Origin: a virus
Lineage: Duplodnaviria > Heunggongvirae > Uroviricota > Caudoviricetes
Virus record (IMG/VR): IMGVR_UViG_2563366912_000005
Direction: 5' to 3' (one strand)
Length of the DNA stretch: 31,816 bases
Shown here: one piece after another, positions 1 to 27,066 of the stretch
Position numbering within the stretch: position 1 is the first letter of the stretch
Layout: each line of letters starts with the position of its first letter
Notes under the pieces: model-generated
Told to the model about the DNA's origin: nothing
Database searches by the model: none
Seen by the model: only the letters and a program-made list of their open reading frames with translations
Translations under genes and position numbers: made by a program

Positions 1-749
<749 letters not shown>

Positions 750-806
750 GTTCTCCACCTGCAAAAAAGCCCCGGATAACCGGGGCAAATGATGAGTATC
801 GTCCTG

Positions 807-1550: not shown

Positions 1551-1560
1551 TACCACCTCC

Positions 1561-1962
1561 TTAATTCGTGTACGTGATCTGGTACGTGATTTCCGCCATC
1601 GCCCAGGTGGCCATCTCATTATCACGTTGATAGTTAAAACCGAGTGGGATCAGGGTGTCGATGAGTCCGGAAAGTGCTGGTACATCATTCAGGGCCGGGA
1701 AAATGGTGCTCTCCATCCACATATCCAGCTCTGAATCCGGTGCCTGTGCCCGGATGAAGACAGCAATATGCAGAACAGCCTGCCAGTCATCTTCATCCGT
1801 CATTTTTCCGGTGTACTGAGCATCACTCAGCCACACCGCCACGGCAGGCAGTTCCTGCGCATCAACAAATGCCGGAAGCCCGTCAAAAAACGTGGCGCTG
1901 TCTCCACACTGTTCCCGAAGGCGTGCCAGTACGACCTGGCGGATTTGTGTATGTCGGTTCAT
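1561..1962 (-). CDS. Tail terminator protein, lambda gpU-like
   Basis: ATFFDGLPAFVDAQELPAVAVWLSDAQYTG...PDSELDMWMES resembles lambda gpU as recalled; ATG at 1962 overlaps the gpZ stop in an ATGA arrangement. Confidence 0.8.
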   Translation of the reverse strand: MNRHTQIRQVVLARLREQCGDSATFFDGLPAFVDAQELPAVAVWLSDAQYTGKMTDEDDWQAVLHIAVFIRAQAPDSELDMWMESTIFPALNDVPALSGLIDTLIPLGFNYQRDNEMATWAMAEITYQITYTN

Positions 1963-2537
1963 CGGGTCAGCCATAACCTCAGTTGTTGTTTCAGTGCATA
2001 CCCCAGCTGTTTCGGCATTTCCGCAGCAATGATGTGGTCGCGGGCATCTTCAAATGCCTGTGTCAGCGGTCCGGACAGCGGGATTTTCACCACATCAATG
2101 GGGTAACGATTTTTGCCATCAATACGTCGCATCACATGCCAGCGACCATTCGCCAGTTGCTGAATAAACGCATCCCGGAAAAGATATTTACCCACCTTCA
2201 GCACACTGCCACGGTACTGCAGTTTTCCACCACGCCGGGCCAGTCTGACCCGGGCTGTCCCCAGCTTAATGGCGGGCAGATTGCCCCGGTTAACGCGGAT
2301 CCTGGCCGTCATTTTTCCTGACGGACTGGCTTTAAACACCCGGACACGCTGACGTACCAGTTTCAGGGGGATCCCTTTCACCTGGTTATCTCCCGCAACG
2401 GTATTCCCGGCAACCTGCCGGGGGGCAACCGAGACCGCTTTCTGTGCCACACGGTTTATCGCCCATGCGCTGGCCTGTGGCACCATACGGGTATCAAGGC
2501 TGTTCAGATTGCGGATGGCATTCTCAAGCCCCTTCAT
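1959..2537 (-). CDS. Minor tail / tail completion protein, lambda gpZ-like
   Basis: MKGLENAIRNLNSL...VAGDNQVKGIP...KNRYPIDVVKIPL resembles lambda gpZ as recalled; GAGGTG ribosome-binding site before ATG at 2537. Confidence 0.8.
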   Translation of the reverse strand: MKGLENAIRNLNSLDTRMVPQASAWAINRVAQKAVSVAPRQVAGNTVAGDNQVKGIPLKLVRQRVRVFKASPSGKMTARIRVNRGNLPAIKLGTARVRLARRGGKLQYRGSVLKVGKYLFRDAFIQQLANGRWHVMRRIDGKNRYPIDVVKIPLSGPLTQAFEDARDHIIAAEMPKQLGYALKQQLRLWLTR

Positions 2538-2548
2538 CCCACACCTCA

Positions 2549-2824
2549 TTACTCAATAAAGATCATTGGCTTACCGTTAAAACGTTCATGCCGTGTGACC
2601 GTCCATTGTTGTCCGTCATAAACAACGCGATCCCCGCGCCGTGGGCGGTATCCCGAAGAAAACACCACCAGAGAGACCGCAGGTCCGGACAGAGCATTCA
2701 GCTCTGCCAGTGTTTCTCCCGGGATCACAGTCATATCGACATCATTAATCGAGGCTGTCTTTCCCATCTTTCTGACCGTGATCGCATCCATACGCGCTGC
2801 CAGCCGGGAAAAGGGATCAGACAT
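2549..2824 (-). CDS. Head-tail joining protein (gpFII-like by position)
   Basis: 91-aa ORF between the head module and gpZ in the conserved lambda order; assigned by synteny and size rather than clear sequence recall. Confidence 0.5.
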   Translation of the reverse strand: MSDPFSRLAARMDAITVRKMGKTASINDVDMTVIPGETLAELNALSGPAVSLVVFSSGYRPRRGDRVVYDGQQWTVTRHERFNGKPMIFIE

Positions 2825-3140
2825 TGAGTTTTACCGGCACTTCTTCTGCACTGGTTCCGGCATCTGCCCAGACAACCCCGACCAGCGGATCAGAGCCGCT
2901 GTTAGTCAGCTGAACTTTTCCTGACTTCAGATAAACCTTCTTACCCGTTTTCATGTCATCCGTTTTCAGCTTAGGCAGCATAAACACACCTTCGGTTATG
3001 CCGTCGCCTGTTTCTCCCTGTGGAATATCGGTCAGCGCCACCGCAAAAACATCACCCACCTGCACCAGATCTCCGCTGCTGATGGCTGCACTTGCAACAA
3101 TCGCCACCGTTTTTCCTTCTTCTACAAAATTCTTTGCCAT
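2817..3140 (-). CDS. Small capsid-associated structural protein (DUF2190-like), downstream of major capsid
   Basis: ORF with GGAGA ribosome-binding site before ATG at 3140 (MAKNFVEEGK...); position immediately after the capsid gene. Confidence 0.5.
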   Translation of the reverse strand: MAKNFVEEGKTVAIVASAAISSGDLVQVGDVFAVALTDIPQGETGDGITEGVFMLPKLKTDDMKTGKKVYLKSGKVQLTNSGSDPLVGVVWADAGTSAEEVPVKLNV

Positions 3141-3183
3141 AACTGTCTCCGCACAGCCCCGTTCAGGGGCTGATTTCAGGTAC

Positions 3184-3202
3184 AAAAAAAGCCCTTACGG
3201 GC
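3184..3202 (-). terminator. Rho-independent terminator after the capsid gene
   Basis: GC hairpin gccc-ttac-gggc; on the minus strand it is followed by a run of seven T. Confidence 0.5.
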
Positions 3203-3226
3203 CATCAGAGTTGTTGTCTGCGACGT

Positions 3227-5185
3227 TTACGCCGTACATTTCACCAGGCCGCGGTGATCAACTGGCGCAACACCAGCGTCAATACGCACTTTCGTTGTCA
3301 CGCCATCCACACTGAAGCCCTCCATCTGATCAATATATGGCGTATCCACACCGTTGAGATAAGCCACTTCAATCGTATCGGAGCCTTTGGACGCAGCCAG
3401 GTAGAAGGTGGTCTGGCTGTTATCATCAAGACGAGGCTCTGCAATAACGGTCGCAAAATCTTTCACCGGGTTAATAATACCGGCGTTAATGTCAGCCCCC
3501 TTGACACTTGAGGAGCGAATGACCTGGTTAGCAACAGACTCCATCGCCGTCGGTACCAGTACGAACGCAGGACGAATATTCAGATGACGCTCACCCTCTT
3601 TCTGAACGCGCATCAACTGGCGGGCTTTATCCAGCGATGCCACGTCCATTGCCGCGCTCTCCAGTACGTTTGCATGTTTCGCTTTATCGAACAGACTTAC
3701 ATTATCTGTGGAGATTTTCGGGTTAGACGTCAGAATGGCATAAACCAGATCGGCAATAGTGGATTTCGCCGCACGGCCCAGCTTCATCGGGACATCGGTC
3801 AGCATATTCAGATCATCATTGATAATGGCCTGACGGGTGATACTGAACAGCTCGCCATAGGTCGCCAGTGCAATAGTGGCCTGTTTATCTCCGGTGGTGA
3901 CGTATTTATATTCTGCCCCTTCACGCACCTGACGCAGAGCACTGAAGCCCCCCATACCCACACGATGGGCAATTTTAAAATCAGACAACTGACCTTTCCG
4001 CGTCCACTGTTCATAGGTTTCAGGGGCATCTTCCCAGCCCTGCAGAATGGCTTTGTTCGCAACATCCAGCAGAATATTACCGAAGTCAGACGTACTGTGT
4101 ATGAACGCCGCACCGACCATCTGCATCGGGTTATAACTGGAAACACCAATACCACGTTCAGTCAGTGACATACGGGCATATTCACGCAGGGTCATCCCGT
4201 TGTAGACATTATCACGTTCAGTTTTTTCAAACCCGGCGCGCGCCATCAGCGCCTGGCGGATCCCGTCCCCCACAAAATTACCGTTACCGGCATAAATATG
4301 AGCCGGGGTATTTTTATTGGATGGCGTGGACTCGCGCCCCATCTCGTTCAACAGCTTTTCGCGGGCCTGCTCCAGCGAACATTCAGGATCGGCAAGACAC
4401 TGAGCCTGCAACGACTGATAACGCCCGCCAAACATGGCAAACAGATCATTAATACCGTTTACACGCGCTTTTTGCTCTGCCAGGACCTGCGCACGGATGC
4501 TGTTTTCATCCACCACGGGTGCTGCTGCCTGCACTGGCGTCCGGGAGGCTGCAGGTCCATCATCCTGTACGCGTGGAGCACTGTTGCGTGGCGGAGTAAT
4601 CATATTTCGAATGGATTCCGGCATCTTTTTAAATTCCTCTGTACGTTTTGACTGAATACATGCCATTGCCTTAACGGCTGGTGTCACCTGATCAGCAAAT
4701 CCCTGTGCCAGACATTCGGCACCGGACATCCAGGTCTCATCCGCCAGCATGGCAGCAATTTCATCGGTGGTTTTCCCGGTTTTCTGTGCATAAGCGGGTA
4801 ACAGAACCGCCTCAACTCTATCGAGCAGGTCGGCATAGGTGCGCATGTCCTCCGCATCACCGCCCGTAAAGCCAAATGGTTTATGAATCATCATGAAGGT
4901 GTTTTCCGGCATAATGACCGGGTTTCCTACCATCGCAATGACCGACGCCATTGACGCCGCCACACCGTCGACATAAACGGTAATGGACGCACCATGTGTT
5001 TTCAGCGCATTAAAAATGGCGATGCCTTCAAAGACATCGCCACCCGGTGAATTAATATGGAGATTAATGTGGGTGATATCGCCCAGTGCATTCAGATCAC
5101 TGATAAACTGCTTCGCTGTAACACCCCAGAAACCAATCTCGTCATAAATATAAATATCCGCGTCACTCTGGTGACCAGCCTGCAT
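3227..5185 (-). CDS. Fused prohead protease (ClpP / S14-like) and HK97-fold major capsid protein
   Basis: N-terminal part IYIYDEIGFWG...INSPGGDVFEG...MASVIAMVG is ClpP-like; C-terminal ~400 aa reads as a major capsid; one continuous frame; start taken at MQAGHQSD (ATG at 5185) just after the portal stop. Confidence 0.8.
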   Translation of the reverse strand: MQAGHQSDADIYIYDEIGFWGVTAKQFISDLNALGDITHINLHINSPGGDVFEGIAIFNALKTHGASITVYVDGVAASMASVIAMVGNPVIMPENTFMMIHKPFGFTGGDAEDMRTYADLLDRVEAVLLPAYAQKTGKTTDEIAAMLADETWMSGAECLAQGFADQVTPAVKAMACIQSKRTEEFKKMPESIRNMITPPRNSAPRVQDDGPAASRTPVQAAAPVVDENSIRAQVLAEQKARVNGINDLFAMFGGRYQSLQAQCLADPECSLEQAREKLLNEMGRESTPSNKNTPAHIYAGNGNFVGDGIRQALMARAGFEKTERDNVYNGMTLREYARMSLTERGIGVSSYNPMQMVGAAFIHSTSDFGNILLDVANKAILQGWEDAPETYEQWTRKGQLSDFKIAHRVGMGGFSALRQVREGAEYKYVTTGDKQATIALATYGELFSITRQAIINDDLNMLTDVPMKLGRAAKSTIADLVYAILTSNPKISTDNVSLFDKAKHANVLESAAMDVASLDKARQLMRVQKEGERHLNIRPAFVLVPTAMESVANQVIRSSSVKGADINAGIINPVKDFATVIAEPRLDDNSQTTFYLAASKGSDTIEVAYLNGVDTPYIDQMEGFSVDGVTTKVRIDAGVAPVDHRGLVKCTA

Positions 5186-5198
5186 CCTGAACCAGGAA

Positions 5199-6707
5199 TT
5201 ATTCTTCGGACTGGTCGTCGGTGTGCTGCGGCTCCTGTCGTTTCGTTGCGGCACTACTGCCTCCTTTATCACTGGCCGGATCGGTATCAAATACCAGATC
5301 CAGATTGCGGTTTTCATCAATTTCGGCCTTGCGCCGACGTTTGACATCATCCGGATTACGACCACCAGCACGTACCCAGTCTGATTCTGTCGCCGCTCCA
5401 CCACGAATCTGGATTTTCCAGGCCTCAGCCTCCTTAACAGGGTCAATCCACGGCATCACTGGTCCGGAATACACCGCGGTATACAGTGAAGAACGGTCAA
5501 GATCGCGGGGTAGCCTGATAACACCGGATGCCACAGCCTGTTTCAGCCATGCACGATACATCGGGCGGGTGACGGCACCAATAAACCAGTCCTGCAGGAT
5601 CAGGTAGCCATCAGTGGATTCAACCAGCTCCTGACGCTGGGCGCTGTAAGTGCCGTTATAGTTGCGCGCTGTACTGGAAAAACTCAGACGACTGCCCGCC
5701 GCCACGGCACGCAACTGACCATTACGAAAAGTTTCAAGGTTAGGATTGGGGCGATCCGACTTCACCATTCCGATTTCTTCGCCGGGTTTCAGATCGTCGT
5801 AAATAATGCCCGGCTGAATGGTAAGCTCACGTTCATTCTCCTTTCTGCCATTACCATCCGGTTCATAGCTCTGCCCGTCGCCTTTCCGGATGTACATCCC
5901 CAGAGCAGCGGCGATCCTTGCTGCAGTCAGCTCAGAATCTTCATATTCTTTCAGGGCACTGAGGCGGATCAGCACACCGGACAACAAAGACGTCCCGCGC
6001 ATCTGGTGCAGACGGCGAACAAATTTAAGATGCAGCATTCGCTCTGCATCCACTTCTTTGGTTTCCATCTGCCGTCCGGATACGGGACGGCTTTTATACA
6101 CCAGATATTTTTCGGGACGCCCCCAGTCATCAACAAACACGCCCTGATTCAGCCTGTTGCTCTCATCACTGGTCATGGGAATAAAGTCCGGCTCGAGCGC
6201 CTCCAGCCAGAAATGAACACCGGCAGAAGGCGCCAGGCTGTTTATGCGCCCGGAAACCATCTGGGCAAACACCTCACCATCGCGCAGCCAGGTACGAAGC
6301 ATCAGACGTTCCAGCATCGGACGGGTAAACTGCCCGGTGACTTCCGGGCTGACAGACCATTCACTCCATCGGGTGCGAATCTCCGCAGCCAGGTCACGGG
6401 CAATGGCCCCATTGCGTAATACCGGATGTGGCTCGACAATAATCCCGTTTTTCCCCACCACCCGTTCTTCCAGCTTGTCAAATACACCAATAACCAGATC
6501 GTGGTTGTTATCAAGGTAACGGGCCTGCTCACGTAACGACACGGCCCCGTACTGGCTTAACTGGTCGGCAGTTCGGTTCTCCCGTCGGGCTTTGTGTGTC
6601 CGCGTCGTTTTTACGGCCTCATAAGCCTGGATCACCGCACGGGAACGCAGCCTTGCCGCTTTCCATCCTGGTGAAAAAACGCCAATCACATCATCAAGAA
6701 TTGCCAT
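5199..6707 (-). CDS. Portal protein, lambda gpB-like
   Basis: About 500-aa ORF between gpW and the protease/capsid gene; start ATG at 6707 overlaps the gpW stop (ATGA) and has a GGCGAGG ribosome-binding site. Confidence 0.8.
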   Translation of the reverse strand: MAILDDVIGVFSPGWKAARLRSRAVIQAYEAVKTTRTHKARRENRTADQLSQYGAVSLREQARYLDNNHDLVIGVFDKLEERVVGKNGIIVEPHPVLRNGAIARDLAAEIRTRWSEWSVSPEVTGQFTRPMLERLMLRTWLRDGEVFAQMVSGRINSLAPSAGVHFWLEALEPDFIPMTSDESNRLNQGVFVDDWGRPEKYLVYKSRPVSGRQMETKEVDAERMLHLKFVRRLHQMRGTSLLSGVLIRLSALKEYEDSELTAARIAAALGMYIRKGDGQSYEPDGNGRKENERELTIQPGIIYDDLKPGEEIGMVKSDRPNPNLETFRNGQLRAVAAGSRLSFSSTARNYNGTYSAQRQELVESTDGYLILQDWFIGAVTRPMYRAWLKQAVASGVIRLPRDLDRSSLYTAVYSGPVMPWIDPVKEAEAWKIQIRGGAATESDWVRAGGRNPDDVKRRRKAEIDENRNLDLVFDTDPASDKGGSSAATKRQEPQHTDDQSEE

Positions 6708-6925
6708 CAGAACCTCGCCAGCCGGTACCCGGGATGCCCCCGTCGTCGTGTAATCAGAGCCGCAAGGCGGCGCTCCCACTCCTGCCGTCCCTGCCGGATC
6801 TCAGATAAGTTTTCCATGGTCATCTGCTGACCATTAAAGGTGACGGATTTTCCGTCCAGCACCGCCATTTCAGCTTCCGTATAACGCTGAATCATGGCTT
6901 CGATATCATTCTGGTTCATAACCAT
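6707..6925 (-). CDS. Head completion / head-tail joining protein, lambda gpW-like
   Basis: 72 aa ending ...RRRGHPGYRLARF, like the lambda gpW C-terminus as recalled; lies between terminase large subunit and portal. Confidence 0.7.
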   Translation of the reverse strand: MVMNQNDIEAMIQRYTEAEMAVLDGKSVTFNGQQMTMENLSEIRQGRQEWERRLAALITRRRGHPGYRLARF

Positions 6926-9015
6926 CCTCCGGAAGTCAGCCAGGGGTTAACATCGTCAGTTACTGTTTTCTTCCGTTTTTGTTTTTTAACAGGCGTGGAT
7001 ACCGGTTCCGGTGAGGATGACGGTTCGGTACTGTCCTGGACACACTCCAGCCAGGTCTCCCGGCTCGCCCACTCCGGTGCATCCGGCCAGCGGATCTTTT
7101 CGTATCCATGCAGAATGACCAGAGCCTCGGCATACACCATCAGGTCAAAAGCTTCGTTGGCACCGCGACCCGGCTTACTCCATTTCCCGTCACTGCTCCG
7201 CTCTTCATACATCAGTTCGTCGTAAAACCAGCTCCCCAGCCAGTCAGGGAAATGCACATAGCCTGGACCTGGCGAGTCACGCCATAACGCGTTATTCACC
7301 CGGTCTTTCAGGGCATCCGTCTGAAGAAGCCAGAGCGGCACATCACCTGCGGCCTGCGCCCGGCGGCCCGTTCGTCCGGTGTTATCAGGGAATGTACGGC
7401 TGATCAGTTTTGCGCGCCGGATGCTGTCACCCTTAAACAGGTAAATACGTTTACCAAGGCCATCACGACGGCAACGACGCCAGAATTTATAGGCATTATC
7501 AGTGACCCCGTCTTCACCGCCGGAGTCCACCGCCATTGCCATCAGTCGCATTTGTTGAGAAGGATCGGAGGCCAGCGGCCAGCTTTTATGAAAAACATCC
7601 GTCAGCAGGACATCCCAGTCTTCCGGATAGCTGGCCGGATCAATTCGCTGGCTCTCCCCGTCGCAGTCACTGCGCAATGACTGCGTGATGTTGTAACGAT
7701 CAATAATCCAGCGTTCGCCACGACTGCCATAGCCCGTTACCTGAACCACAAAACGGCGATGACGTCCCGCCTGCACATCCACTGTCGCCACAAGGAAATT
7801 AACGCCATCCGGCACACTGCGGGAAGGAACTGGCTCTGCCCGCTGCTCAAGCAGTTCACTTTTTCGTTGCTCCATGCTGGCACGAGGAAGATAAGGCAAT
7901 CCCCAGTCGGTGTTGATAACCGCCCTGAGTGTTTCTTCGCTTCCTGTCGCTTCATACTCCTGTTCTGCAGTCAGTAATTTGTAAACCAGTTGCGCCCAGG
8001 TCTGATACGCAGCAGCTGGCCCTTCCATCCAGAAACTGGCGATACGGGAGCGGCGCGGTTCACCGGAAACGTTGCCGTTACGATCAATGACCTGACCTTC
8101 ACGCAACCAGACTCCTGCACTATTGAGCTCACGCTTTTTCTCCGCAGTGATAATGCCGCTGCAGTGCGGGCAAAGTAGATACGCCGCCTCACTGGCTTTA
8201 AAGGGATCCGGTTCATTACGGTAGCCGGTCATGGCATCCATGGCTGGCTGAAAATATTCACCGCAGTGCGGACATGACCAGTACCAGCGGCGGCGGTCAC
8301 CACGATTGTAAAGGGAAAGAATACCAGTCGTCGGTGGCGCTTCATGAGGCGACTTACGTCGCCATTTGCTGTCGCAGATGTCACGTCCCGGCGAGCTCTC
8401 CACCAGAGTCATCCCGGCGGACATAAATGTGGTGGTACGTTTTGAGGCCAGGGAGAAACCATCACCCTCGCTGTCGATATTCTCCGGAAAACGGTCGTAA
8501 TCGGTTAAGGCGACAAACCGGTAATCCGACGACGACATAATGTTGACCGAGGGCCAACCAATTTTAAGGAACGAGCCATCCCTGAACGTCTTATCATGGA
8601 CATTATTGTCGTTACGACGTGGACTCATTCTTTTCTTTACCGCCGCACTGCTTCTGAACGTTCTGTCGAGGCGCTTTTTAGAATGCTCGCGGGCCTTATC
8701 TTCGGTCATCTGCACAACGAGCATGTCCGAAGGATCGCAAACGATGGTATAGACAATCCATCCATCGATCAGACCAATGGTCTTCCCTGTTCGCGCAGGA
8801 CCAACAAAAATCACCGCATCGTATTCACGCGATGCCAGGCAGTTCATGGGCTCAATGATGTAGGGTGTCAGTTCAGGATCCCATGGCACCGAGTTACCAG
8901 CCCCCTTGGGAACACGCATGAATTTTTTAACAGCCTCCGAAATCGGCATGCGACGTGGTGGGGAAAATCCTGCCGATATGTCCCTTCCCAAATTTCGGGC
9001 TGATGAAAAACCCAT
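6916..9015 (-). CDS. Terminase large subunit, lambda gpA-like
   Basis: 699 aa with CPHCGEYF zinc-ribbon-like motif and VHFPDW as in lambda gpA; AGGAGG ribosome-binding site 5 nt before ATG at 9015. Confidence 0.85.
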   Translation of the reverse strand: MGFSSARNLGRDISAGFSPPRRMPISEAVKKFMRVPKGAGNSVPWDPELTPYIIEPMNCLASREYDAVIFVGPARTGKTIGLIDGWIVYTIVCDPSDMLVVQMTEDKAREHSKKRLDRTFRSSAAVKKRMSPRRNDNNVHDKTFRDGSFLKIGWPSVNIMSSSDYRFVALTDYDRFPENIDSEGDGFSLASKRTTTFMSAGMTLVESSPGRDICDSKWRRKSPHEAPPTTGILSLYNRGDRRRWYWSCPHCGEYFQPAMDAMTGYRNEPDPFKASEAAYLLCPHCSGIITAEKKRELNSAGVWLREGQVIDRNGNVSGEPRRSRIASFWMEGPAAAYQTWAQLVYKLLTAEQEYEATGSEETLRAVINTDWGLPYLPRASMEQRKSELLEQRAEPVPSRSVPDGVNFLVATVDVQAGRHRRFVVQVTGYGSRGERWIIDRYNITQSLRSDCDGESQRIDPASYPEDWDVLLTDVFHKSWPLASDPSQQMRLMAMAVDSGGEDGVTDNAYKFWRRCRRDGLGKRIYLFKGDSIRRAKLISRTFPDNTGRTGRRAQAAGDVPLWLLQTDALKDRVNNALWRDSPGPGYVHFPDWLGSWFYDELMYEERSSDGKWSKPGRGANEAFDLMVYAEALVILHGYEKIRWPDAPEWASRETWLECVQDSTEPSSSPEPVSTPVKKQKRKKTVTDDVNPWLTSGGWL

Positions 9016-9023
9016 TATTCCTC

Positions 9024-9551
9024 CTAGAGACTCTCTCCTTCCTCATCAGGAATTAATTCAGCAGCACAAGCCTCGTAGGATTTTTCCTGAAGAGTGTATC
9101 GCAGGTCATCAATGGCCTGCTGTACAACGCCGACGGCCTGAGGAGTCAGGGCGCAATCGCGTTCAAGAACATCCGGAATTGTCTCCAGAACCTGGACGAC
9201 AGCCTTTCTCATGGACGAATAGACGATGACTACTTCATCAACGGGGATGAGTTTTCGCTGCTCCTTTTCCAGCTTGATCCTTTCATTTTCAGATTGGTAC
9301 CAGTCCTTTCTCTCTTTCGGCTCCATACGGGATGGATCATGAACAGAGTCTGCTGCCTCATGCTTCACACTAAACAGGGCTGGCCCGACATGCTGCAGGG
9401 CGTAAACGGGGTTCCCCCTGATAGTCGCAGCCACAGGAGTGTTGGCCGCGAGGAGCCGTTTTTTTACTGTGTCCCGGTGAAGCCCAAAGGCCTCAGCGAT
9501 TTTAAAAACACTCCAGTAATAAGCATCACCGATCCCGCTCACATTTGACAT
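9024..9551 (-). CDS. Terminase small subunit (Nu1-like)
   Basis: Directly upstream of terminase large; start assigned to MSNVSGIGDAYYW with a GGAG ribosome-binding site; the ORF could extend to 9581. Confidence 0.6.
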   Translation of the reverse strand: MSNVSGIGDAYYWSVFKIAEAFGLHRDTVKKRLLAANTPVAATIRGNPVYALQHVGPALFSVKHEAADSVHDPSRMEPKERKDWYQSENERIKLEKEQRKLIPVDEVVIVYSSMRKAVVQVLETIPDVLERDCALTPQAVGVVQQAIDDLRYTLQEKSYEACAAELIPDEEGESL

Positions 9552-10114
9552 AAGCAACTCCATCTGGCAGGTGAAAATCATGTTTATTTATATATTTCAA
9601 TTAATTGCAAACTGGTCTAATGACAGGGAGAAAAAAATATTGTACAGGTGAAAAGAGAAATAACTTTTAATTATCAATAAATTACCAAACATGCTGCCGC
9701 CGCCATGGAAATGCAAAAACTAGCCTTTTTCCGCGACGCTCCCGCCCCGTGGCAGGGGCCCCCACCGGGAGGACCCGACAGCCTGACAGCCTGACAGCCG
9801 TGATGAGCATCTGATACAGCGCTTTACATAATGGCATAGGAATAATTCAGAAGGACATCACAGCATGCCCACACAAATTAGTGTGAGTGTCCTGTTTCTT
9901 CCTACGCACAGGACTGACGAGCATGAGGGGAAAATATGCGAACCATAAATGCCTCATCTTCAGCAATGCAACCGGCATCCGAACAGGACGATATTGTAAA
10001 TTCACCTAATTACGAGGACATTGCAGTAGTTGAATTGCAGCTCTGTATTAGCCTGACAGTGACAGAATGCGATATTGACTCTGTCACAGGTGAAATAGTT
10101 TGAATGATTAGCAG

Positions 10115-10330
10115 TTATGGTGCCCAGTCAACCACCAGGGAATAATCCTTCGAATTCTTATCGTGCTTCACCAACGCTGCCTCAATTGCCCTGAATGCTT
10201 CCAGAGACACCTGATGTTCTATACATGCAATTACAACATCCGGGTAACTCATAGAAATGGTGCTATTAAGCATATTTTTTACACGAATCAGATCCAACGA
10301 GAGTTCATCAGCAGATTGTTCTTTATTCAT
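10115..10330 (-). CDS. Small acidic hypothetical protein
   Basis: 71-aa ORF with GGAGCG ribosome-binding site 7 nt before the ATG; function unknown. Confidence 0.45.
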
Positions 10331-10630
10331 TTTGTCGCTCCATGCGTTTGCTCGTCATCTAGCGGTTAAAATATTACTTCAAATCTTACTGCATAAAAGA
10401 GGAAAAGTATGAAAGTTTGAGTACATCGACCTTACATACATCTGTCGGTTGCATATCCCTCCTGGATGCCAGCAAGGCTCAATTTTGTTACGCAATCAAC
10501 ACTATTCATCAAAAACAGGCTTAATATTTGACATAAATCATCAACAAAACACAAAGAGGTCAGACCAGATTGAAACAATAAACACGATAATGCTAACTAC
10601 GCGCCATCGTATCACATGGAAGGTTTACCA

Positions 10631-11041
10631 ATGGCTCAGGCTGCCATTTTTAAAGAAATATTCGATCAAGTGCGTAAAGATTTAAACTGTGAATTATTTT
10701 ATTCTGAGCTAAAACGTCACAATGTCTCACTTTATATTTACTATTTAGCCACAGATAATATTCACATTGTGTTAGAAAACGACAACATAGTGTTAGTAAA
10801 AGGACTCAAAAAGGTTGTAAATGTTAAATTCTCCAGAAACAAACATCTTATAGAGACCTCCTATAATAAGTTGAAATCAAAAGAAATCACATTTCAACAA
10901 TACAGGGAAAATCTTGCTAAAGCAGGAGTTTTCCGATGGGTTACAAATATCCAGGAACACCAAAGATATTACTATGCCTTTGATAACTCATTACTATTTA
11001 CTGAAAGCATCCAGAAAACTACACAGATCTTACCACGCTAA
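10631..11041 (+). CDS. ydfO: DUF1398-type small prophage protein, YdfO-like
   Basis: From [16 protein letters not shown] the product is 136 aa, matching the Qin-prophage YdfO as recalled. Confidence 0.6.
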
Positions 11042-11192
11042 ACCATAACGTCCGGCTTCTCTCACTCCTGAGCCGGACTGCATTGGTTTAATAAAAACCA
11101 TCAACAATTGTGATTTAGATATTCGGAACCATTCAAATATAACAAAACCCCGTAAAAACGAGGTTTATGGATAAATTTTATTATTGAATACA

Positions 11193-11366
11193 TCAAATTA
11201 AATTAATCTTGACATCATAGCTTTCAAGACCCGTCATTTTTTCCCGTGCGGTAAACTGAATACTGGTAACTTCTTTCCCGGTCTTTTTCTTAAGTTCAAT
11301 AATTTTTTTTGTTATATATTCAGAAATATCTGCTTCTGCTTTTGTTTTTAAGTTTTCAATATTCAT
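11193..11366 (-). CDS. gnsB: GnsB-like small protein (57 aa)
   Basis: Hand translation MNIENLKTKAEADISEYITKKIIELKKKTGKEVTSIQFTAREKMTGLESYDVKINLI; below the ORF-track length cutoff; GAGGAA ribosome-binding site. Confidence 0.75.
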   Translation of the reverse strand: MNIENLKTKAEADISEYITKKIIELKKKTGKEVTSIQFTAREKMTGLESYDVKINLI

Positions 11367-11537
11367 CATTTCCTCTTTTAGTCTGTTATGACTTTCCAGT
11401 TACACAGTAAGTCGATTATATGGTGCAAACGTGTAAAAGATAAGATGAAACATCGCAATAATCAACATACGATAGTCTAAATTTTACACAAACAGACAAA
11501 GAGAATTTTCCTGAATTATCAATACAATAGCATCAAA

Positions 11538-11768
11538 TCAACTCAAGAGCCTTATTGCTGCTTCCAGAATTTCTTCTGAAGTAACATGTCGATCCGCGGC
11601 TACATAAATGACTTTATGATCTCCGGTCAGAGATGGAAACCCTGCGGCCATTACAGTAAGGTGTGTTTTTTCGCCATTTGGATATTCACGCATGATGGTG
11701 TTAACTCCAGTCATCGCTGGCACTACCACTGCTGGTTCAGAGTTAAAAAAAACTATGATTTTTTTCAT
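11538..11768 (-). CDS. Small hypothetical protein
   Basis: Start taken at MKKIIVFFNS (ATG at 11768); 76 aa; lies between gnsB and cspI. Confidence 0.4.
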   Translation of the reverse strand: MKKIIVFFNSEPAVVVPAMTGVNTIMREYPNGEKTHLTVMAAGFPSLTGDHKVIYVAADRHVTSEEILEAAIRLLS

Positions 11769-12039
11769 GATGTTACCGTAGTATGTGAGTATCCATCGAA
11801 TAGATACCAAGCAAAAAAGCTCCCGAAGGAGCCTTCATTTTCACTTTTTTAAATCCAACGACAGACGGCTGGCATTTAAGTATTGTGAAATATTATCAAA
11901 TGTAATCATCATTGATTTACAAAAGATACATTTTGCCCCGAAAGGATTCATGTCAGAAACATCAAAAGATGATGTTCTATACTGGGAACCATGACAACAC
12001 GGGCATCTAAAGTGAATATGGTTTGTAATATTGTCTACC

Positions 12040-12252
12040 TCAAAGCGCCACTACATGAACAGCGGCAGGACCTTTAGGTCCGTTCTCAATACCAAATTCA
12101 ACTTCCTGATTCTCAGTTAATGTTTTGAAATCGTTGCTCTGAATTGCTGAGAAATGGACAAACACATCTTTGCTGCCATCTTTCGGCGTGATGAAACCAA
12201 AACCTTTTTCAGGGTTAAACCATTTCACTAAACCAGTCATTTTGTTAGACAT
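12040..12252 (-). CDS. cspI: Cold-shock protein CspI-like
   Basis: [42 protein letters not shown]... cold-shock domain with RNP motifs; long AT-rich 5' leader upstream. Confidence 0.9.
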
Positions 12253-12614
12253 AATTATTACCTTTTGAAGAAATTAGCCCTTGGGCAGAATGGTCCGAAA
12301 AAAAATATCAGAGAGAAAAACCAACAAGGAAATCTCAAGAGGTACAAATAATAAAATTATAACAATGACTGCTTCAGATAAATTTGTAACAAACCAGAAC
12401 ACCATTAACGCATGATTAACCACCCATAGCAAGGATTACTTTTGTAAAGAAAAACACAGCAATGAAAGAATAGCTTTATTTATTAATAAAACGTGTCATT
12501 CTGATTAAGACCTTTTATCTTACCCTTAAGATTTCAGGAATTTTGGCTCATGGAAGAGTCCTTTTTATTTAAATTTTACATTCCGCGATGTAAATGTTCC
12601 GATTTAATATTACC

Positions 12615-13638
<1,024 letters not shown>

Positions 13639-13642
<4 letters not shown>

Positions 13643-13950
13643 ATATATTTATGATGAGGACGCTCGTGCTTATTGGCAGGATTTTCAATCTTAAAGGAGT
13701 ACTGATGCTGCAGATAAGACTCAACTTTTTCTGACAATTTTTCTGCTACTTCCAGGAAGACTTGCCGGACGCTCCTTCTGGCTGCTGCCTCATAAAACTC
13801 CAGCGCAGCTCCTTCAACACGGTCCATGGCGACATCCAGGTCAAAAATTTCACCGTCAAAGCGTTCCTTGTCCTGTAAGGCTACAGTTACCGTAACTTTA
13901 TTCTCAAAATTACGGACTCCTTTCACAACCAGTTCATAGTCTTGAGTCAT
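13639..13950 (-). CDS. ydfR: YdfR-like protein (DUF1327)
   Basis: 103 aa between holin and endolysin, as in the Qin prophage. Confidence 0.55.
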
Positions 13951-13954
13951 TGGA

Positions 13955-14170
13955 TTACTCTCCTCTCGCAGCCTTACGCCTGTCTTCTTTAATCTTGAAA
14001 TAAAGATTTGTCAGATACGTCAGCAGGCCAAAAACCAGGCTACCCAGCACACCGATTGCAGCCCACTGTGACGGAGTTACTTTATCGAGTAACTGTAATG
14101 CCCAGAAACCAGCATTACCCGCCGATGTGCCATAGGCAACACCTGTTGTTAACTTATCCATTGATTTCAT
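13955..14170 (-). CDS. Class II pinholin, phage-21 S21-like, with dual-start MKSM motif
   Basis: [26 protein letters not shown]...[38 protein letters not shown] (71 aa), near-identical in pattern to S21; GAGG ribosome-binding site. Confidence 0.85.
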
Positions 14171-14390
14171 ATCCTCACCCCGATGTACACGGATGGTGCA
14201 ATATGTTTGAAAAAGATCGGAGTCTACGGGGTAGTTTTGACAGCACACGTTGTTCTCAACGGCGCTAAAGAAACATACACATTAAAAATGTGAGTAATTA
14301 TTTTGAAAGAAAGTCATATATAAAATAATAATACGAGAAATGTTTTCATATTTAGTGTACTGTATACGGCCATTTATACAGGAAAAGCCT

Positions 14391-14561
14391 ATGTCAGAAC
14401 GTAAAGACTCAAAATCACGCCGTAATTATCTCGTTAAATGTTCCTGCCCAAACTGCACCCAAGAGTCAGAACACAGTTTTTCAAGAGTACAAAAAGGTGC
14501 CCTTTTGATCTGCCCTCATTGCAACAAAGTATTCCAGACAAATCTTAAAGCTGTAGCCTGA
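14391..14561 (+). CDS. Small zinc-ribbon protein (CPNC...CPHC)
   Basis: 56 aa from MSERKDSK with AGGAAAAG ribosome-binding site; two CxxC pairs; followed by a hairpin terminator. Confidence 0.4.
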   Translation: MSERKDSKSRRNYLVKCSCPNCTQESEHSFSRVQKGALLICPHCNKVFQTNLKAVA

Positions 14562-14620
14562 TTGATTTTATTAGTAACAAGTATTTTTTATATTTTAATA
14601 ATATATTTAAAGCAGATAAT

Positions 14621-14646
14621 AAAAAACCCGCCTGAGCGGGTTTGAG
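14621..14646. terminator. Bidirectional rho-independent terminator
   Basis: aaaaaa-cccgc-ctga-gcggg-ttt; GC stem flanked by an A-run and a T-run. Confidence 0.55.
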
Positions 14647-14924
14647 ATTGTGGTGCTTTTTGTGGGAGTCATCCACTTACGCACTTTGTTTTGCGATGCC
14701 AGCAGTTAGCTTCTGCTGTGAAACTATTCATGCAGCAAACCTGCACTTCACCACAATGGTTAGCATACTTTTCCTGATTAAGATTTTGCCAAATATGCTA
14801 GCCATTGTTTCATGTATTGGACCTCCTTACTTTTTATTAAAGAGATCCAATATTCACTACTCTGTCCGTATCTCTACTCAGGCATCAGCCTTCTTCGTTA
14901 TCGTATACAGACGAGCGATGAATT

Positions 14925-15140
14925 TTAATCAGTAATGATGACATTTGCTGCTGCAGGACCTTTAGCACCACTCTCTATAGAGAAGGTAACCTTTTGACCT
15001 TCAAATAAGGTTCGATAATTATCATTCTGAATCGCAGAAAAATGCACAAACACATCTTTACTACCATCAACAGGAGAAATAAAGCCGAAACCTTTATCAG
15101 CGTTAAACCATTTTACTAAACCAGTCATTTTATTTGACAT
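14925..15140 (-). CDS. cspB: Cold-shock protein CspB-like
   Basis: [53 protein letters not shown]...; about 300 nt of AT-rich leader upstream. Confidence 0.9.
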
Positions 15141-15438
15141 TCTACATTCCTTAACTTGAGCCTTTCGGCATAAATGGTTTGCATAACAGAAACGACTTCG
15201 TACTTAATTGGAGAGACTCAAAGAAGGAATAAGTGAATAACACCTGAAATGAGAACTGCTTTAGTAAACTACTTCGTATATCGTCTGTTCTTCAAACCGA
15301 CGCAGTCATTAACTCATAGTTGAACATATGAAGCAATGTTTATTTTAGACATCCAGCCACCTTCAATCCTATCAAAAAAGTAGTTTTCTCCAGGAACGTG
15401 TGTATGGTGCACCAGGTTATCAGTATTAAGGAGTTTTT

Positions 15439-15655
15439 CTGTCCCCTAAAATGACAGGAATTGTCAAAAACTTTGACTACAAAAGCAGCAAAGGTCTTAT
15501 ATTCCCATCCGATGGCGTATCGATGCCCAGCTTCACGTTTCAGCTCTCAATCTTCGAGATGCAGAAGAAATTACCACAGGATTACGCGTGGAATTTTGCT
15601 GGATAAATGGTTCGCGTGGACCTTCAACTGCCAATGTTTATCCCGGGATGAGATT
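15439..15655 (+). pseudogene. cspF: cspF-like cold-shock gene, decayed: frameshift and lost start and stop
   Basis: Frame A reads [22 protein letters not shown], then homology continues in the +1 frame ([40 protein letters not shown]); consistent with a 1-nt deletion near 15520; expected upstream ATG reads CTG. Confidence 0.6.
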
Positions 15656-15684
15656 CAATATCTCTATTGCCCCATTTAAAGCAC

Positions 15685-15720
15685 AAAAACCCGCTTATAA
15701 GCGGGTTTTCTACTTTTTTC
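15685..15720. terminator. Bidirectional hairpin terminator; on the minus strand the candidate late terminator (tR'-like)
   Basis: aaaaa-cccgc-ttataa-gcggg-tttt; on the minus strand it lies about 50 nt downstream of the predicted late promoter. Confidence 0.55.
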
Positions 15721-15755
15721 TAAACGTCGGATACACAAAGCCCATCGTTGAGAAA

Positions 15756-15784
15756 ATCTTATCCATGTTTTTTGAAAAATGCAA
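15756..15784 (-). promoter_or_regulatory. Candidate late promoter (pR'-like), directly downstream of Q
   Basis: Minus strand TTGCAT, 17-nt spacer, TAAGAT; location matches lambda pR' relative to Q. Confidence 0.45.
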
Positions 15785-15815
15785 ACATCATGTCGCCATC
15801 TTCAGCAAAAATCAT

Positions 15816-16568
15816 TTATCTCGTCACCTTCCTCAATTGCGCTTCCGCGTATGCTTCTTCCTGCCAGCACTTTGTTACCAGTTTACCAATGACGTCCGCA
15901 TACCCCTTATACCACTGATAATCGGTCAGGTCTGGTACCAGCTTCTGGACATGACGTCGTGCCAGCGTGGTCGGTAAACGACTAAACCGGTTTCCATTAC
16001 AACGCCCACAAATCTTATATACCGGTACGCCATGAAACCGGGTTCTTTTTTCATCCAGAACAATCCCTTTACCCTTACACCCTCTGCACGCTGTGCTGAC
16101 TTCGCCCTTACCATGGCAATGCTGACATAGTTCCTTCACCCATTCTTCCTTGATTACAGATTCCCCGCGTCTGTAGTGTTTCACCACTTCGCGCAATACA
16201 TTATAAAATCCCGTACCTGAACAATGCTCACAGCGAGCCTTACTTGCCGCAGACCTGGAGTAATCAGCAAAGGCAAAATTCACGAGGTAAGGAATAATCT
16301 GTAACCGGATTTCTTCACTCAATTTGTTCAATGTCGGGTTATCCAGTGCCATCGCGTAATTTAGCAGGCCTTCAATCGCAAACTGAGCGTCCTGAACACC
16401 AACTTTTGCCAGAAATAAGGCCAACCCAAGTGGTGCTTTCGACTGCACCATCCCCTGCGCTGCCATTACATCCGTAATTGTTAAACAACCGGTGCCTGTC
16501 GCTGGAGCGTCATCGCTCAATTTTGGAGATTTTGGGGAGTAATATTTTGGTAAGGCTTCAAGGTTCAT
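15816..16568 (-). CDS. Late-gene antiterminator Q-like protein
   Basis: 250 aa from [12 protein letters not shown] with GGAG ribosome-binding site; Cys-rich zinc-binding region ([30 protein letters not shown]). Confidence 0.75.
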
Positions 16569-16581
16569 GCTCGTTCTCCAC

Positions 16582-17508
16582 TTACGCCAGTACGCCAATT
16601 GCCAGCGCGCGATCGATAAAACGAAATATCAGCTCCAGTTGGGAGCCATACTTCTCTTCAAATGCCACTGTATCCGTATGCAGCTCGTTGTGATGCTTTC
16701 TGCACAAAGGCAACACAAAGAGATCATGTGCTTTTGTTCCCATTCCGCCCTGCCCGTGACCAATCAGATGATGCGGATCGTCGGCTGGCATACCGCAGCA
16801 AGCACACGGCTGTGTCTTAACCCAACGTGTGTATTTCTCCTTAACCCAGCGGCGACGTTTAGGCAGCTTCATGAAAGATTCCGGAGACTCTGGATCAACG
16901 GTGATGCTTACCACCGTCTTTTCCTGTGGTGTTTTTTGTTGCTGGTGGGCGTAAGGCAACGGTGCAAGATTTTTTGTGCGTTGTTTCAATATGCTGGTGG
17001 CGGTCTGCTCTCCCGGTACGATGTCGCTTTCGCGGTACACCGAGCAGATTTTTTCCGCTGGTAATCCCAGCGAACGACGCGATACAGCCTCAGGTAGTGC
17101 ATCCACCACCTGATTGCAGACCGCCCACCAGGATAATTCAGCCAAAGATAATTCCCGCTCCTGCGTACCGCTTATTGCGTGACGGATGACGTCAATCACC
17201 CATGCTGTCAGATTTTGTTGAGCAAGCAGCTCCAGTGATTCCGATGTCTGGTCACGCAGTTGGTTGTCGCAGTGCCAACACAACACCATTGCGCCGGTAC
17301 CATAACGGTGAATGACTGTTTCAGAGTGATGGTAATCGCCATTAGGCCACTGGCAGGATGTAACATGACGTAATAGCCAGTCAGACAATGCGCCAACACC
17401 GCCAGCAGCACGAATCACCCGTTCGTTACTAAAAAACGGCAGCAATGTTTTGTCTTCCGCCAGCGACTGGCGAACGGCAGGAACGACTCCGGATGGCAGA
17501 TTACGCAT
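16582..17508 (-). CDS. ydfU: DUF968-family protein (YdfU-like) with C-terminal HNH-like Cys/His motif
   Basis: C-terminus CACCGMPADDPHHLIGHGQGG...CRKHHNELH; start set at MRNLPSGV (308 aa); a GTG at 17670 would overlap the upstream gene. Confidence 0.55.
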   Translation of the reverse strand: MRNLPSGVVPAVRQSLAEDKTLLPFFSNERVIRAAGGVGALSDWLLRHVTSCQWPNGDYHHSETVIHRYGTGAMVLCWHCDNQLRDQTSESLELLAQQNLTAWVIDVIRHAISGTQERELSLAELSWWAVCNQVVDALPEAVSRRSLGLPAEKICSVYRESDIVPGEQTATSILKQRTKNLAPLPYAHQQQKTPQEKTVVSITVDPESPESFMKLPKRRRWVKEKYTRWVKTQPCACCGMPADDPHHLIGHGQGGMGTKAHDLFVLPLCRKHHNELHTDTVAFEEKYGSQLELIFRFIDRALAIGVLA

Positions 17509-17632
17509 GCTTTTTGGTTCCGGTTCCACCAGCACTCGAGGATTATGAAATATCTGTATGGATTCACGGCCCGGCTTAAGGACCACCAGCCCAAGCTCAG
17601 GCACCAGAACAGGTCTAAGTAATACCCGCACG

Positions 17633-18445: not shown

Positions 18446-18601
18446 TTACTCCTCAGGTTCGTAAGCTGTGAAGACAGCGACCTCCGTCTGGCCGGTTCGG
18501 ATTCGTACCTCGCAGAGGTCTTTCCTCGTTACCAGTGCCGTCACTATGACGGTTAAACAGATGACGATCAGGGCGATTAACATCGCCTTTTGCTGCTTCA
18601 T
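18446..18601 (-). CDS. hokD: Hok/Gef-family type I toxin, HokD-like
   Basis: MKQQKAMLIALIVICLTVIVTALVTRKDLCEVRIRTGQTEVAVFTAYEPEE (51 aa), a single transmembrane helix plus conserved Hok periplasmic tail; hairpins flank the gene. Confidence 0.85.
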   Translation of the reverse strand: MKQQKAMLIALIVICLTVIVTALVTRKDLCEVRIRTGQTEVAVFTAYEPEE

Positions 18602-19275
18602 AGCCTGCTTCTCCTTGCCTTTCGGCACGTAAGAGGCTAACCTACATATGTCTAGCATGAAATTGGCCTCAGATTAATGTTAAGCGTCTTGCAGGACGCG
18701 TAATGTTAACTGGGGCTTTTCTCTATCTGCCGTTGGTGTTCATGCCCGAGGCAGATAGCCTCAAGCACCCGCAGCCATTCTACTTAACTACCGTTACCTC
18801 GCCAATGTGAAATCAGTCAGAAAGGCGATCCATAAGAACAATAGCAAGACAATAAATCGCCATTACAGCCGTAATAGCCAGCGCACATTTGAGAACCAGC
18901 ACCACAACCTCCTGTATTGGACGTAGACCAGTCCTGATGAATATGAGGCTGTCTCGTCAGTGATTCAATACAACTATTGGGTATAGTTTCTCTGATTTTT
19001 TCTGTGGAAATGGGGCACAACCACTAGTCACCACCAGCACTTCTTTTAATACGCAAAGTCCGACACAAGCTAACCTTCTAGTCCGCTTTGAGCGAAAAAC
19101 AGCCATAATTTAGTGCCACGTATATAATGATAGAGCTATTCAAGCTAGCAATTCACATGTAAAAATTCAGAGGGTAGAAGCACATAGTTATAAATGTTGG
19201 CTCCATCGACAAATTGCGGTCTCAAGTACATTTATTAATGTTGCCCCCGCATTAACAAATCATCAAGGTGACGAC

Positions 19276-27007: not shown

Positions 27008-27066
27008 TTTTCTGGTGACGTTTGGCGGTATCAGTTTTACTCCGTGACTGCTCTGCCGCCGTTTTT
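27008..27066 (+). ncRNA. dicF: DicF small regulatory RNA
   Basis: tttctggtgacgtttggcggtatcagttttactccgtgactgctctgccgccgttttt matches the DicF sequence as recalled, with terminal hairpin and T-run. Confidence 0.8.

Follow-up and report, generated by a model that had tools for sequence, protein, structure and literature searches.

A probable cargo slot with cold-shock genes in a Qin-type prophage, flanked by its lysis genes and a lambda-type late regulatory cassette

The interval between Q and the holin gene described here is very probably a cargo ('moron') slot of a Qin/Tritos-type Escherichia coli prophage, with a lambda-type, Q-dependent late regulatory cassette on one side and the lysis genes on the other. 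The window (the whole 31,816-nt stretch of DNA analysed) is a Qin-type lambdoid prophage adjoining rspAB, with its late genes on the minus strand. Its cold-shock cargo, formed by ynfU, cspB and a broken cspF (Table 1), is already annotated, and the locus is ordinary and already known; a literature search on cspB, cspF and Qin together returned no paper specifically treating it. All of the elements named in the original prediction were found at or near their predicted places, and its inventory stands for what it listed, but it had missed ynfU, the loss of ynfS and the shared terminator. The locus has little significance beyond its annotation, other than as a clean example of how lambdoid phages carry cargo ahead of the holin, just past Q/pR'/tR'; Stx phages have their Shiga toxin genes in this same slot. 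Cargo placed here would come under Q control upon induction and keep its own regulation in the lysogen.

Table 1. Features of the Q-to-holin interval and its borders, in window coordinates
Feature	Coordinates	Strand	Basis
Holin, class II (essQ/essD), first lysis-cassette gene	13955..14170	-	PF04971, 116.7 bits; RefSeq annotation
ynfU, 56-aa putative zinc-binding small protein	14391..14561	+	PF23499 YnfU, 107.7 bits; RefSeq annotation
Second intrinsic terminator, late strand	14624..14643	-	AAACCCGC-UCAG-GCGGGUUUUUU; terminator scan; fold z-score -5.17
Strongly structured stretch of ~280 nt, cspB stop to next terminator	14644..14924	-	Fold z-score -7.16
cspB transcription unit	14909..15301	-	cspA-type 5'-UTR thermoregulator plus intact coding sequence 14925-15140
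cspF pseudogene	15439..15640	+	Alignments to K-12 and other alleles; translations; PGAP flag
tR'-like bidirectional intrinsic terminator	15686..15709	both	Minus: AAAACCCGC-UUAU-AAGCGGGUUUUU; plus: terminator of the cspF remnant
12-mer CTCAACGATGGG	15741..15752	-	Identical to lambda pR', at equal distance from the -10 hexamer
Late promoter pR' (predicted)	15756..15784	-	-35 TTGCAT 15784-15779, 17-nt spacer, -10 TAAGAT 15761-15756
Q antiterminator (ydfT/quuQ homologue), 250 aa	15816..16568	-	PF03589; 7UBM; RefSeq 'antitermination protein'

Late regulatory cassette next to Q

[quoted passage not shown] The Q product of the window belongs to this family, with 181.5 bits against PF03589 (cutoff 26.7) and a phmmer match to PDB 7UBM (Q-lambda) at E = 6.9e-36. 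Unlike lambda Q, the 250-residue protein has an added zinc-ribbon segment, formed by an extra CXXC insertion relative to the family.

A sigma-70-like promoter had been predicted on the minus strand just after Q, and the hexamers are present there, TTGCAT starting 32 nt past the Q stop codon. By consensus they are weak (7/12 matches): a generic promoter scan did not list TTGCAT-17-TAAGAT, its total of 5 sites in the window compares with 5.7 expected from shuffled sequence, and the hexamers taken alone are no better than chance. The call is convincing because of homology to lambda pR', with consensus not relied on. From the -35 hexamer to +9, 32/44 positions are identical to lambda pR', ungapped and in register, and the pause element AACGATGGG at +1 to +9 is identical to, and in register with, the lambda sigma-dependent pause element. 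The 12-mer that contributes to this match (Table 1) is unique within the window, where 0.17 chance sites would be expected even with one mismatch allowed. The predicted +1 is an A at 15749, with a -10-like AACGAT at predicted +1 to +6 followed by GGG, both as in lambda; a pause at about +16/+17 (15734/15733) is predicted from the sequence. The spacer is identical to that of lambda at 11/17 positions and different at 6/17, and this part of lambda pR' is where the lambda Q-binding element lies. A Q-binding element in the spacer of the window is putative, given the spacer differences and the zinc-ribbon insertion.

The hairpin predicted about 50 nt downstream of the promoter, a fair estimate, begins 41 nt after the predicted +1. 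It comprises 10 pairs, is GC-rich and is followed by UUUUU (terminator scan, which finds 6 terminator-like sites against 1.7 expected). On the minus strand its folding energy is -23.5 kcal/mol with a z-score of -3.3, and the plus-strand z-score is -4.6; as the hairpin is bidirectional, it is also the terminator of cspF. On the late strand it spans +41 to +64, and the predicted transcript ends about 65 nt from its start, whereas the lambda terminator ends at +194. A weak point is the minus-strand U-tract, which has only 5 U before GUGCUUU; the SfV annotation has a terminator at the homologous position.

These features uphold the proposed likeness to lambda pR'-tR', given the lambda-family Q, the promoter identity, the complete pause element and the SfV terminator at the homologous place. 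The lambda Q-pR'-tR' unit (the 6S RNA unit) shares with the window its Q Pfam family, a 17-nt spacer, the identical pause element, a terminator and lysis genes downstream; unlike lambda, the window has ~1.5 kb of cargo with two opposing genes before the holin. Comparison with further phages delimits the module. In SfV, mEp460, Ayreon and 15 Stx2c phages, Q-module homology runs up to window position 15682, the edge of the hairpin. Q, pR' and tR' of the Stx2c phages and SfV have ~90% nucleotide identity to the window, and cargo has again been inserted after tR' and ahead of the holin. In an Stx2c phage it comprises a methylase, tRNAs and stx2c A/B, in SfV orf47/orf48, and in the window the cold-shock genes. 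Where visible, the Stx2c and SfV cargo points in the direction of late transcription; cspF and ynfU in the window run against it. Since stx2c follows this Q, pR' and tR' module in Stx2c phages, the slot in the window is the classic moron slot.

It is very unlikely that TTGCAT-17-TAAGAT is a chance match, with late and lysis transcription beginning elsewhere, for example by early-operon read-through via Q. The poor consensus score, the omission from the scan and the equal frequency of promoter-like sites in shuffled sequence would all suit such an account, but the in-register identity with lambda pR', pause element included, speaks against it. It is further opposed by the ~90% conservation of the Q-to-hairpin block in SfV, mEp460 and Stx2c phages, with homology stopping exactly at the hairpin, and by the need of Q proteins for such a cassette in order to act (PMC9388147).

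Cold-shock cargo and its transcription

cspB is intact, as had been predicted: it encodes 71 residues, is identical in nucleotide sequence to K-12 cspB, and its product matches the cold-shock domain (PF00313) at 109.1 bits. Its leader matches the full RF01766 model (1-428) at 158.8 bits (gathering score 78); the 5' UTR begins at ~15301, and its own promoter lies just upstream, at ~15302-15340. In LF82 lysogens cspB is expressed 59-fold over the prophage background (PMC9928086 Table 1), and it is listed among the expressed morons of Tritos (PMC9928086). It thus has the properties by which a moron is recognized: it is expressed in the lysogen (LF82) from a promoter of its own and has its own terminator. 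In the region of the leader and hairpin, Rfam at a permissive threshold gave sub-threshold hits only (E = 0.1-0.4; rnk, Leu and Trp leaders, RsmY), which were rejected because they reflect a terminator hairpin.

Hairpin terminators had been predicted for both cspF and cspB. Both are present, but that of cspF is the tR' hairpin itself, and the nearest good minus-strand terminator after cspB lies ~280 nt beyond its stop codon. The cspB transcript probably stops at this second terminator, which, read on the plus strand, is also 3' of ynfU. The structured stretch before it contains an unannotated 11-codon ORF (14813-14778), and a hairpin sequesters the Shine-Dalgarno sequence of this ORF. Where pairs vary in the stretch, wobble alone preserves them, and no double compensatory change was seen among the little variation present. 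Beyond the terminator, ynfU is transcribed opposite to the late direction and has a candidate promoter, TTGAAA-18-AATAAT at 14303-14332 (10/12, promoter scan). The holin is followed by ydfR, lysozyme and Rz/Rz1, forming the lysis cassette.

The Qin prophage of K-12 has the order essQ - ynfU - cspB - cspF - ynfS - ydfT(quuQ), and the window shares its gene order, orientation and rspB site, with 99.7-100% identity over 11885-15284 and 15824-17623. The two differ in that K-12 Qin has ynfS and an intact 70-codon cspF (TTG start) where the window has a frameshift and a 258-bp deletion, and in that the prophage of the window retains genes for head, tail, terminase and integrase, all lost from K-12 Qin. 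Tritos (prophage 3 of E. coli LF82; OV696610.1) shows 99.0% identity to the window across 13901-16700 (2.8 kb, 27 mismatches) and is mosaic relative to it in other parts of the prophage. Its cspB-to-Q interval is likewise 676 bp long and bears no cspF annotation; LF82 gives an exact match to the frameshift-site probe, and the cspF of LF82 carries a pseudogene flag. Tritos produces virions and plaques (PMC9928086), which indicates that this type of phage can be active while carrying the broken cspF allele.

The distance from +1 to the holin start is 1,579 nt and contains two minus-strand terminators. From this geometry it follows, as originally proposed, that late transcripts would have to cross cspB and a terminator to reach the lysis genes. 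We infer that read-through is Q-dependent, from the same geometry and from plaque formation by Tritos with the same arrangement. By analogy with lambda, sigma-70 RNA polymerase lacking Q would initiate at pR' on the minus strand (+1 = 15749), pause at about +16/+17 as sigma region 2 re-binds the -10-like AACGAT, and terminate at the tR' hairpin to release a transcript of ~65 nt. Upon induction of the prophage, Q from the gene just upstream would load onto the paused complex, as lambda Q does. The polymerase would then ignore terminators, passing the cspF remnant (antisense), cspB (sense), the second terminator and ynfU (antisense) before reaching the genes for the holin, lysozyme and Rz and continuing past them. 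The cspB unit is autonomous in the lysogen, having its own promoter and a cold-sensing 5' UTR of the cspA type.

Lesions, distribution and origin of the broken cspF allele

The predicted decay of cspF is confirmed by alignment with K-12 and four other alleles and by NCBI annotation: RefSeq/PGAP on identical DNA describes cspF as 'frameshifted; incomplete; missing C-terminus', and pseudogene flags are present in W2-5 and LF82. The frame switch that had been noted lies after 15515, where a 1-nt deletion relative to K-12 (GATGG-CGT versus GATGGTCGT) produces a -1 frameshift at codon 26/27. The start codon is CTG, as reported, but the codon it replaces is the TTG of K-12 and not the ATG that had been expected. 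Translations and alignment agree with the original prediction that no stop occurs at the expected position; the cause is a 258-bp deletion (junction 15640/15641) that took out codons 69-70 and the stop codon together with ynfS, a small gene. A further 2-bp deletion lies upstream of cspF, near 15379. The conceptually repaired CspF still matches PF00313 at 60.2 bits, but as it stands cspF is a dead gene, having no uninterrupted 70-codon ORF with a usable start and stop.

The broken allele is present in 216/5,426 complete E. coli genomes. The deletion junction is found in all 216 carriers and the exact frameshift (an 86-nt sequence around the site) in 208; the one variant examined among the other nine is not intact. 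An allele intact in its own lineage, which the original prediction had named as evidence against decay, was therefore not encountered: no credible intact copy was found among the complete E. coli genomes. Qin-type cspB-cspF modules number ~1,620 in these genomes, and ~13% of them (216) have a dead cspF and no ynfS. Among species representatives the allele occurs only in Escherichia ruysiae and one misbinned MAG contig, both frameshifted.

Two accounts would spare cspF. One holds that the gene is still productive, either through a 51-codon ORF at 15451-15606 (22 N-terminal CspF residues followed by an out-of-frame tail) or as a full-length protein made by programmed frameshifting, and we judge it highly improbable. 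The allele retains an ATG in frame (codon 5) and, in AAGGAG, a good Shine-Dalgarno sequence, but the latter is spaced for the CTG and not for the ATG 12 nt downstream, and of the cold-shock fold the ORF preserves no more than the first strands. In the TUM18781 genome a second indel, +1 C, brings back the reading frame 7 codons later, yet there is no slippery motif at the deletion site, and even in frame the first stop is at 15977, inside antisense Q. The allele has radical replacements (G14Y, T22F, R55W) and a pN/pS of 0.39, in contrast to the near-invariance of the intact CspF proteins sampled, and cspF is absent from the expressed Tritos morons (PMC9928086). The other account, that the lesions are sequencing or assembly errors in the window and the gene is really intact, has a vanishing likelihood and is effectively refuted. 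It draws on a database protein, P0001 (70 residues, identical to the conceptually repaired allele), the sole intact match in a set of 5.8 billion proteins, which is encoded in CP123276.1. That genome is 4,641,690 bp, almost the size of MG1655, and agrees with K-12 at every one of 423 indel columns; its version of the 258 bp missing from the window is 100% K-12, while the DNA next to it is ~10% diverged. This pattern is the signature of a reference-guided consensus, and its intact CspF is probably an assembly artefact. Moreover, the frameshift sequence recurs in 208 independent complete genomes and the junction in 216, and E. ruysiae has the same broken form.

The dead allele sits in a sharply bounded, apparently recombinant patch: ~470 bp (15305-15765) are ~10% diverged from K-12, versus ~0.2% in both flanks, a divergence that decay in place cannot have produced. 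In-place neutral decay is rejected on this difference together with the identical cspB, the pN/pS of 0.39 (pS 0.20) in the cspF patch and residues Y14, S17 and W55, which the allele has in common with an intact E. albertii CspF. A diverged cspF lineage brought in by recombination from a diverged prophage, and then broken, would be the better fit.

Two more speculative readings, both drawn from sequence features, seem unlikely. The structured stretch downstream of cspB may be an undescribed cold-responsive translational switch or a small-protein gene, the candidate being the 11-codon ORF with its sequestered Shine-Dalgarno sequence. Alternatively, loss of cspF-ynfS may have been favoured by removing interference with pR': the pair is transcribed head-on towards this promoter, and its loss could benefit Qin-type phages that are still inducible, such as Tritos. 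The reading based on interference has phage PhiR42_1 against it: cspF-ynfS is still intact there, in what was entered as a complete phage genome.

Identity and setting of the locus

Many complete E. coli chromosomes, strain W2-5 among them, match the queried 1,567 bases (14249-15815) at 100% identity, and the NCBI annotation of the W2-5 copy records ynfU (+), cspB (-) and a cspF pseudogene (+); the tag on cspF in the matching DNA reads 'frameshifted; incomplete; missing C-terminus'. The interval lies between the holin and the antitermination gene ydfT, a gene order identical to that of the K-12 cryptic prophage Qin, next to rspB. Qin is less complete than the window's prophage. The W2-5 counterpart region, which matches much of the window, includes genes for integrase, excisionase, immunity, replication, terminase, portal, capsid and tail. 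In the window, the late genes lie on the minus strand. Phages Tritos and cdtI have structural genes 98.5% identical to window 61-9747, and Tritos (prophage 3 of E. coli LF82), a virion-forming phage that was purified from plaques (PMC9928086), is 99.0% identical across 13901-16700. The content of the locus, being either annotated or textbook lambdoid biology, is already known. The original prediction is correct in observation and interpretation except for details, among them the overlooked loss of ynfS (a small gene beyond cspF in K-12) and presence of ynfU.

Past about 18783 the window is mosaic relative to W2-5. Between the replication genes and hokD, W2-5 (10297-12810) has a gene resembling QueH and another resembling KwaB (Kiwa defence), where LF82 instead has an ImmA/IrrE-type gene, which makes this a second variable cargo site of such prophages. 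A 22.9 kb contig assigned to a 'Veillonella parvula' MAG (JAGZPX010000007.1) is 100% identical to the window across 2.1 kb of prophage; almost certainly the contig comes from E. coli and was misbinned.

Features of the locus and RNA genes elsewhere in the window
Feature	Position	Strand	Details
Q protein gene	16568-15816	-	250 aa; Pfam PF03589, 181.5 bits
pR' hexamers	TTGCAT 15784-15779; TAAGAT 15761-15756	-	17-nt spacer; read past the Q stop
tR' hairpin	15709-15686	-	10 pairs, then UUUUU; +41 to +64
cspA thermoregulator (Rfam)	15301-14909	-	full model, 158.8 bits; gathering score 78
cspB	15140-14925	-	71 aa; PF00313, 109.1 bits
Nearest good minus-strand terminator after cspB	14643-14624	-	about 280 nt past the stop codon
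Second cspA-type thermoregulator, ahead of cspI	12013-12398	-	RNA-family match, 112.8 bits
sok antitoxin RNA of hokD	18596-18770	-	RNA-family match, 112.7 bits
DicF sRNA	27010-27061	+	RNA-family match, 72.5 bits

The late promoter, its terminator and the cargo slot

The window's Q aligns with the solved Q-lambda (7UBM, E = 6.9e-36) and has an extra CXXC segment; PF03589 is the Q-lambda family, whose regulatory cassette comprises, by definition, the Q gene, PR', a sigma-dependent pause element, a terminator and the genes that follow (PMC9388147). After TAAGAT the minus strand reads TTTCTC and then AACGATGGG, starting at 15749, whereas lambda pR' comprises TTGACT, a 17-nt spacer, TAAATT, TGACTC and then the same AACGATGGG. 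Ungapped from -35 to +9, 32/44 positions agree (by segment, in order from the -35 hexamer: 4/6, 11/17, 4/6, 4/6 and 9/9). The 12-mer CTCAACGATGGG, common to both, occurs once in the window, with 0.17 sites expected by chance if one mismatch is allowed. We take AACGAT at +1 to +6 to be the -10-like element behind the sigma-dependent pause at +16/+17, as in lambda. The consensus score is weak (7/12) and a generic promoter scan, in which promoter-like sites were not in excess, did not list pR', so the case for this promoter rests on homology rather than on its hexamers.

Both the lambda-like pR' and the hairpin terminator that had been placed after Q are borne out. The predicted unmodified transcript spans about 65 nt, whereas that of lambda has 194 nt. 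On the plus strand, CUACUUUUUU comes after the hairpin, which in this direction serves cspF; since it reads as a terminator on either strand, the 'tR'-like' and 'cspF' terminators, proposed as separate, are a single bidirectional element.

Q and its leader are ~90% identical in SfV, mEp460, Ayreon, several other coliphages and 15 Stx2c-converting phages, and in nearly all of these the match starts where the hairpin has its outer edge, at query position 43 (window 15682); in SfV a rho-independent terminator is annotated where homology with the window starts. In a Stx2c phage, whose Q belongs to the same module (PF03589, 179.6 bits), a DNA methylase gene, two tRNA genes and both Shiga toxin genes (A and B) lie downstream. 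Different cargo after a common Q module identifies the tR'-to-holin interval as a familiar variable cargo slot, filled in Qin-type prophages by cold-shock genes.

Ancestry and decay of cspF

The predicted decay of cspF is confirmed by several lesions. The window's copy begins at 15439 with CTG, where the 70-codon K-12 gene has TTG and not the ATG that had been expected. A 1-nt deletion after 15515 (GATGG-CGT) shifts the frame at codon 26/27, and a 258-bp deletion (junction 15640/15641) has taken out the last two codons of cspF (69-70), its stop codon and ynfS, a gene of 29 codons; relative to K-12, 2 bp are also missing upstream, near 15379. The shifted frame stays open until 15977, within antisense Q, and a repaired frame retains a cold-shock domain match (60.2 bits).

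Identity to K-12 is 99.7-100% over 11885-15284 and 15824-17623, extending >1.8 kb either side of a sharply bounded patch (roughly 15305-15765) that is about 10% diverged, with indels. Decay of cspF in place is ruled out by this 50-fold local excess of substitutions; judged by its sequence, the patch must be of different ancestry, probably a recombination mosaic with a diverged Qin-like prophage as its source. Coding differences from K-12 number 9.5 synonymous and 11.5 non-synonymous (pS 0.20, pN 0.077, ratio 0.39), whereas the protein is near-invariant among four other intact CspF alleles sampled. Y14, S17 and W55 of the window's copy are also seen in one intact CspF of E. albertii, as are P3 and N11 in another E. 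coli variant, which argues that the allele descends from a genuine, diverged lineage of cspF and was inactivated later. The patch also spans the cspB core promoter edge, tR' and pR'.

Among 5,426 complete E. coli genomes, the deletion junction is present in 216 and the undeleted cspF-ynfS form in 1,406; the diverged cspF sequence occurs in 217, of which 208 match an 86-nt frameshift-spanning probe exactly. The identical broken allele is found in one Escherichia ruysiae genome. Strain TUM18781 (locus 1475-1678) has gained one C (+1) at a site 21 nt upstream of the -1 deletion, so that the reading frame is recovered after seven codons; the 258-bp deletion is retained and there is no stop. In strain DG351-2 (locus 1327-1539), cspF is of the K-12 type and is interrupted by a stop at codon 31 (CAG -> TAG), showing that cspF has also decayed independently.

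The only candidate for an intact cspF of the window's own lineage encodes P0001, a 70-aa CspF from the protein search that is identical to the repaired window copy and encoded solely in CP123276.1, a 4,641,690-bp 'complete genome' (locus 1638755-1644967). This locus has the window's substitutions yet the K-12 state in 423/423 indel columns, and is 100% K-12 over the exact 258 bp deleted in the window while adjoining DNA is about 10% diverged, the pattern expected of an MG1655-reference consensus. We therefore discount it as an intact allele; the record is probably a reference-guided artefact, from which a database entry, the sole intact CspF of the window's type, has arisen.

cspB and the late transcript

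As predicted, cspB is intact, its nucleotide sequence without a difference from that of K-12. The full-length thermoregulator match indicates a separate start for cspB near 15301, driven by a promoter of its own immediately upstream. Transcription in LF82 lysogens stands 59-fold (cspB) and 93-fold (cspI) above the prophage background (PMC9928086).

The established lambda model and the anatomy of the locus should together give the following mechanism. In the lysogen, pR' would fire constitutively, pause and terminate at tR', with cspB expression coming from a separate cold-regulated unit and cspF being silent or non-productive. On induction, Q would load at the paused complex and make the polymerase resistant to terminators. 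The late transcript would then extend 1,579 nt to the holin at 14170, through tR', antisense cspF, sense cspB, the 14643-14624 terminator and antisense ynfU, and past the holin into ydfR, the lysozyme gene, Rz/Rz1, cspI and the structural genes.

The sole loose end of the locus is a highly stable fold in the stretch that separates cspB from its terminator: the 280 nt of window 14644-14924 (-) fold at -108.2 kcal/mol, against -73.1 +/- 4.9 kcal/mol for shuffled sequence (z = -7.16). K-12 annotation records nothing at the matching region, and among five haplotypes with little variation the variable pairs are kept by wobble alone, with zero compensatory double changes. Within this stretch, a 14-bp hairpin occludes a strong Shine-Dalgarno sequence (TAAGGAGGT), and an 11-codon ORF (MKQWLAYLAKS, 14813-14778, -) begins 7 nt after it.
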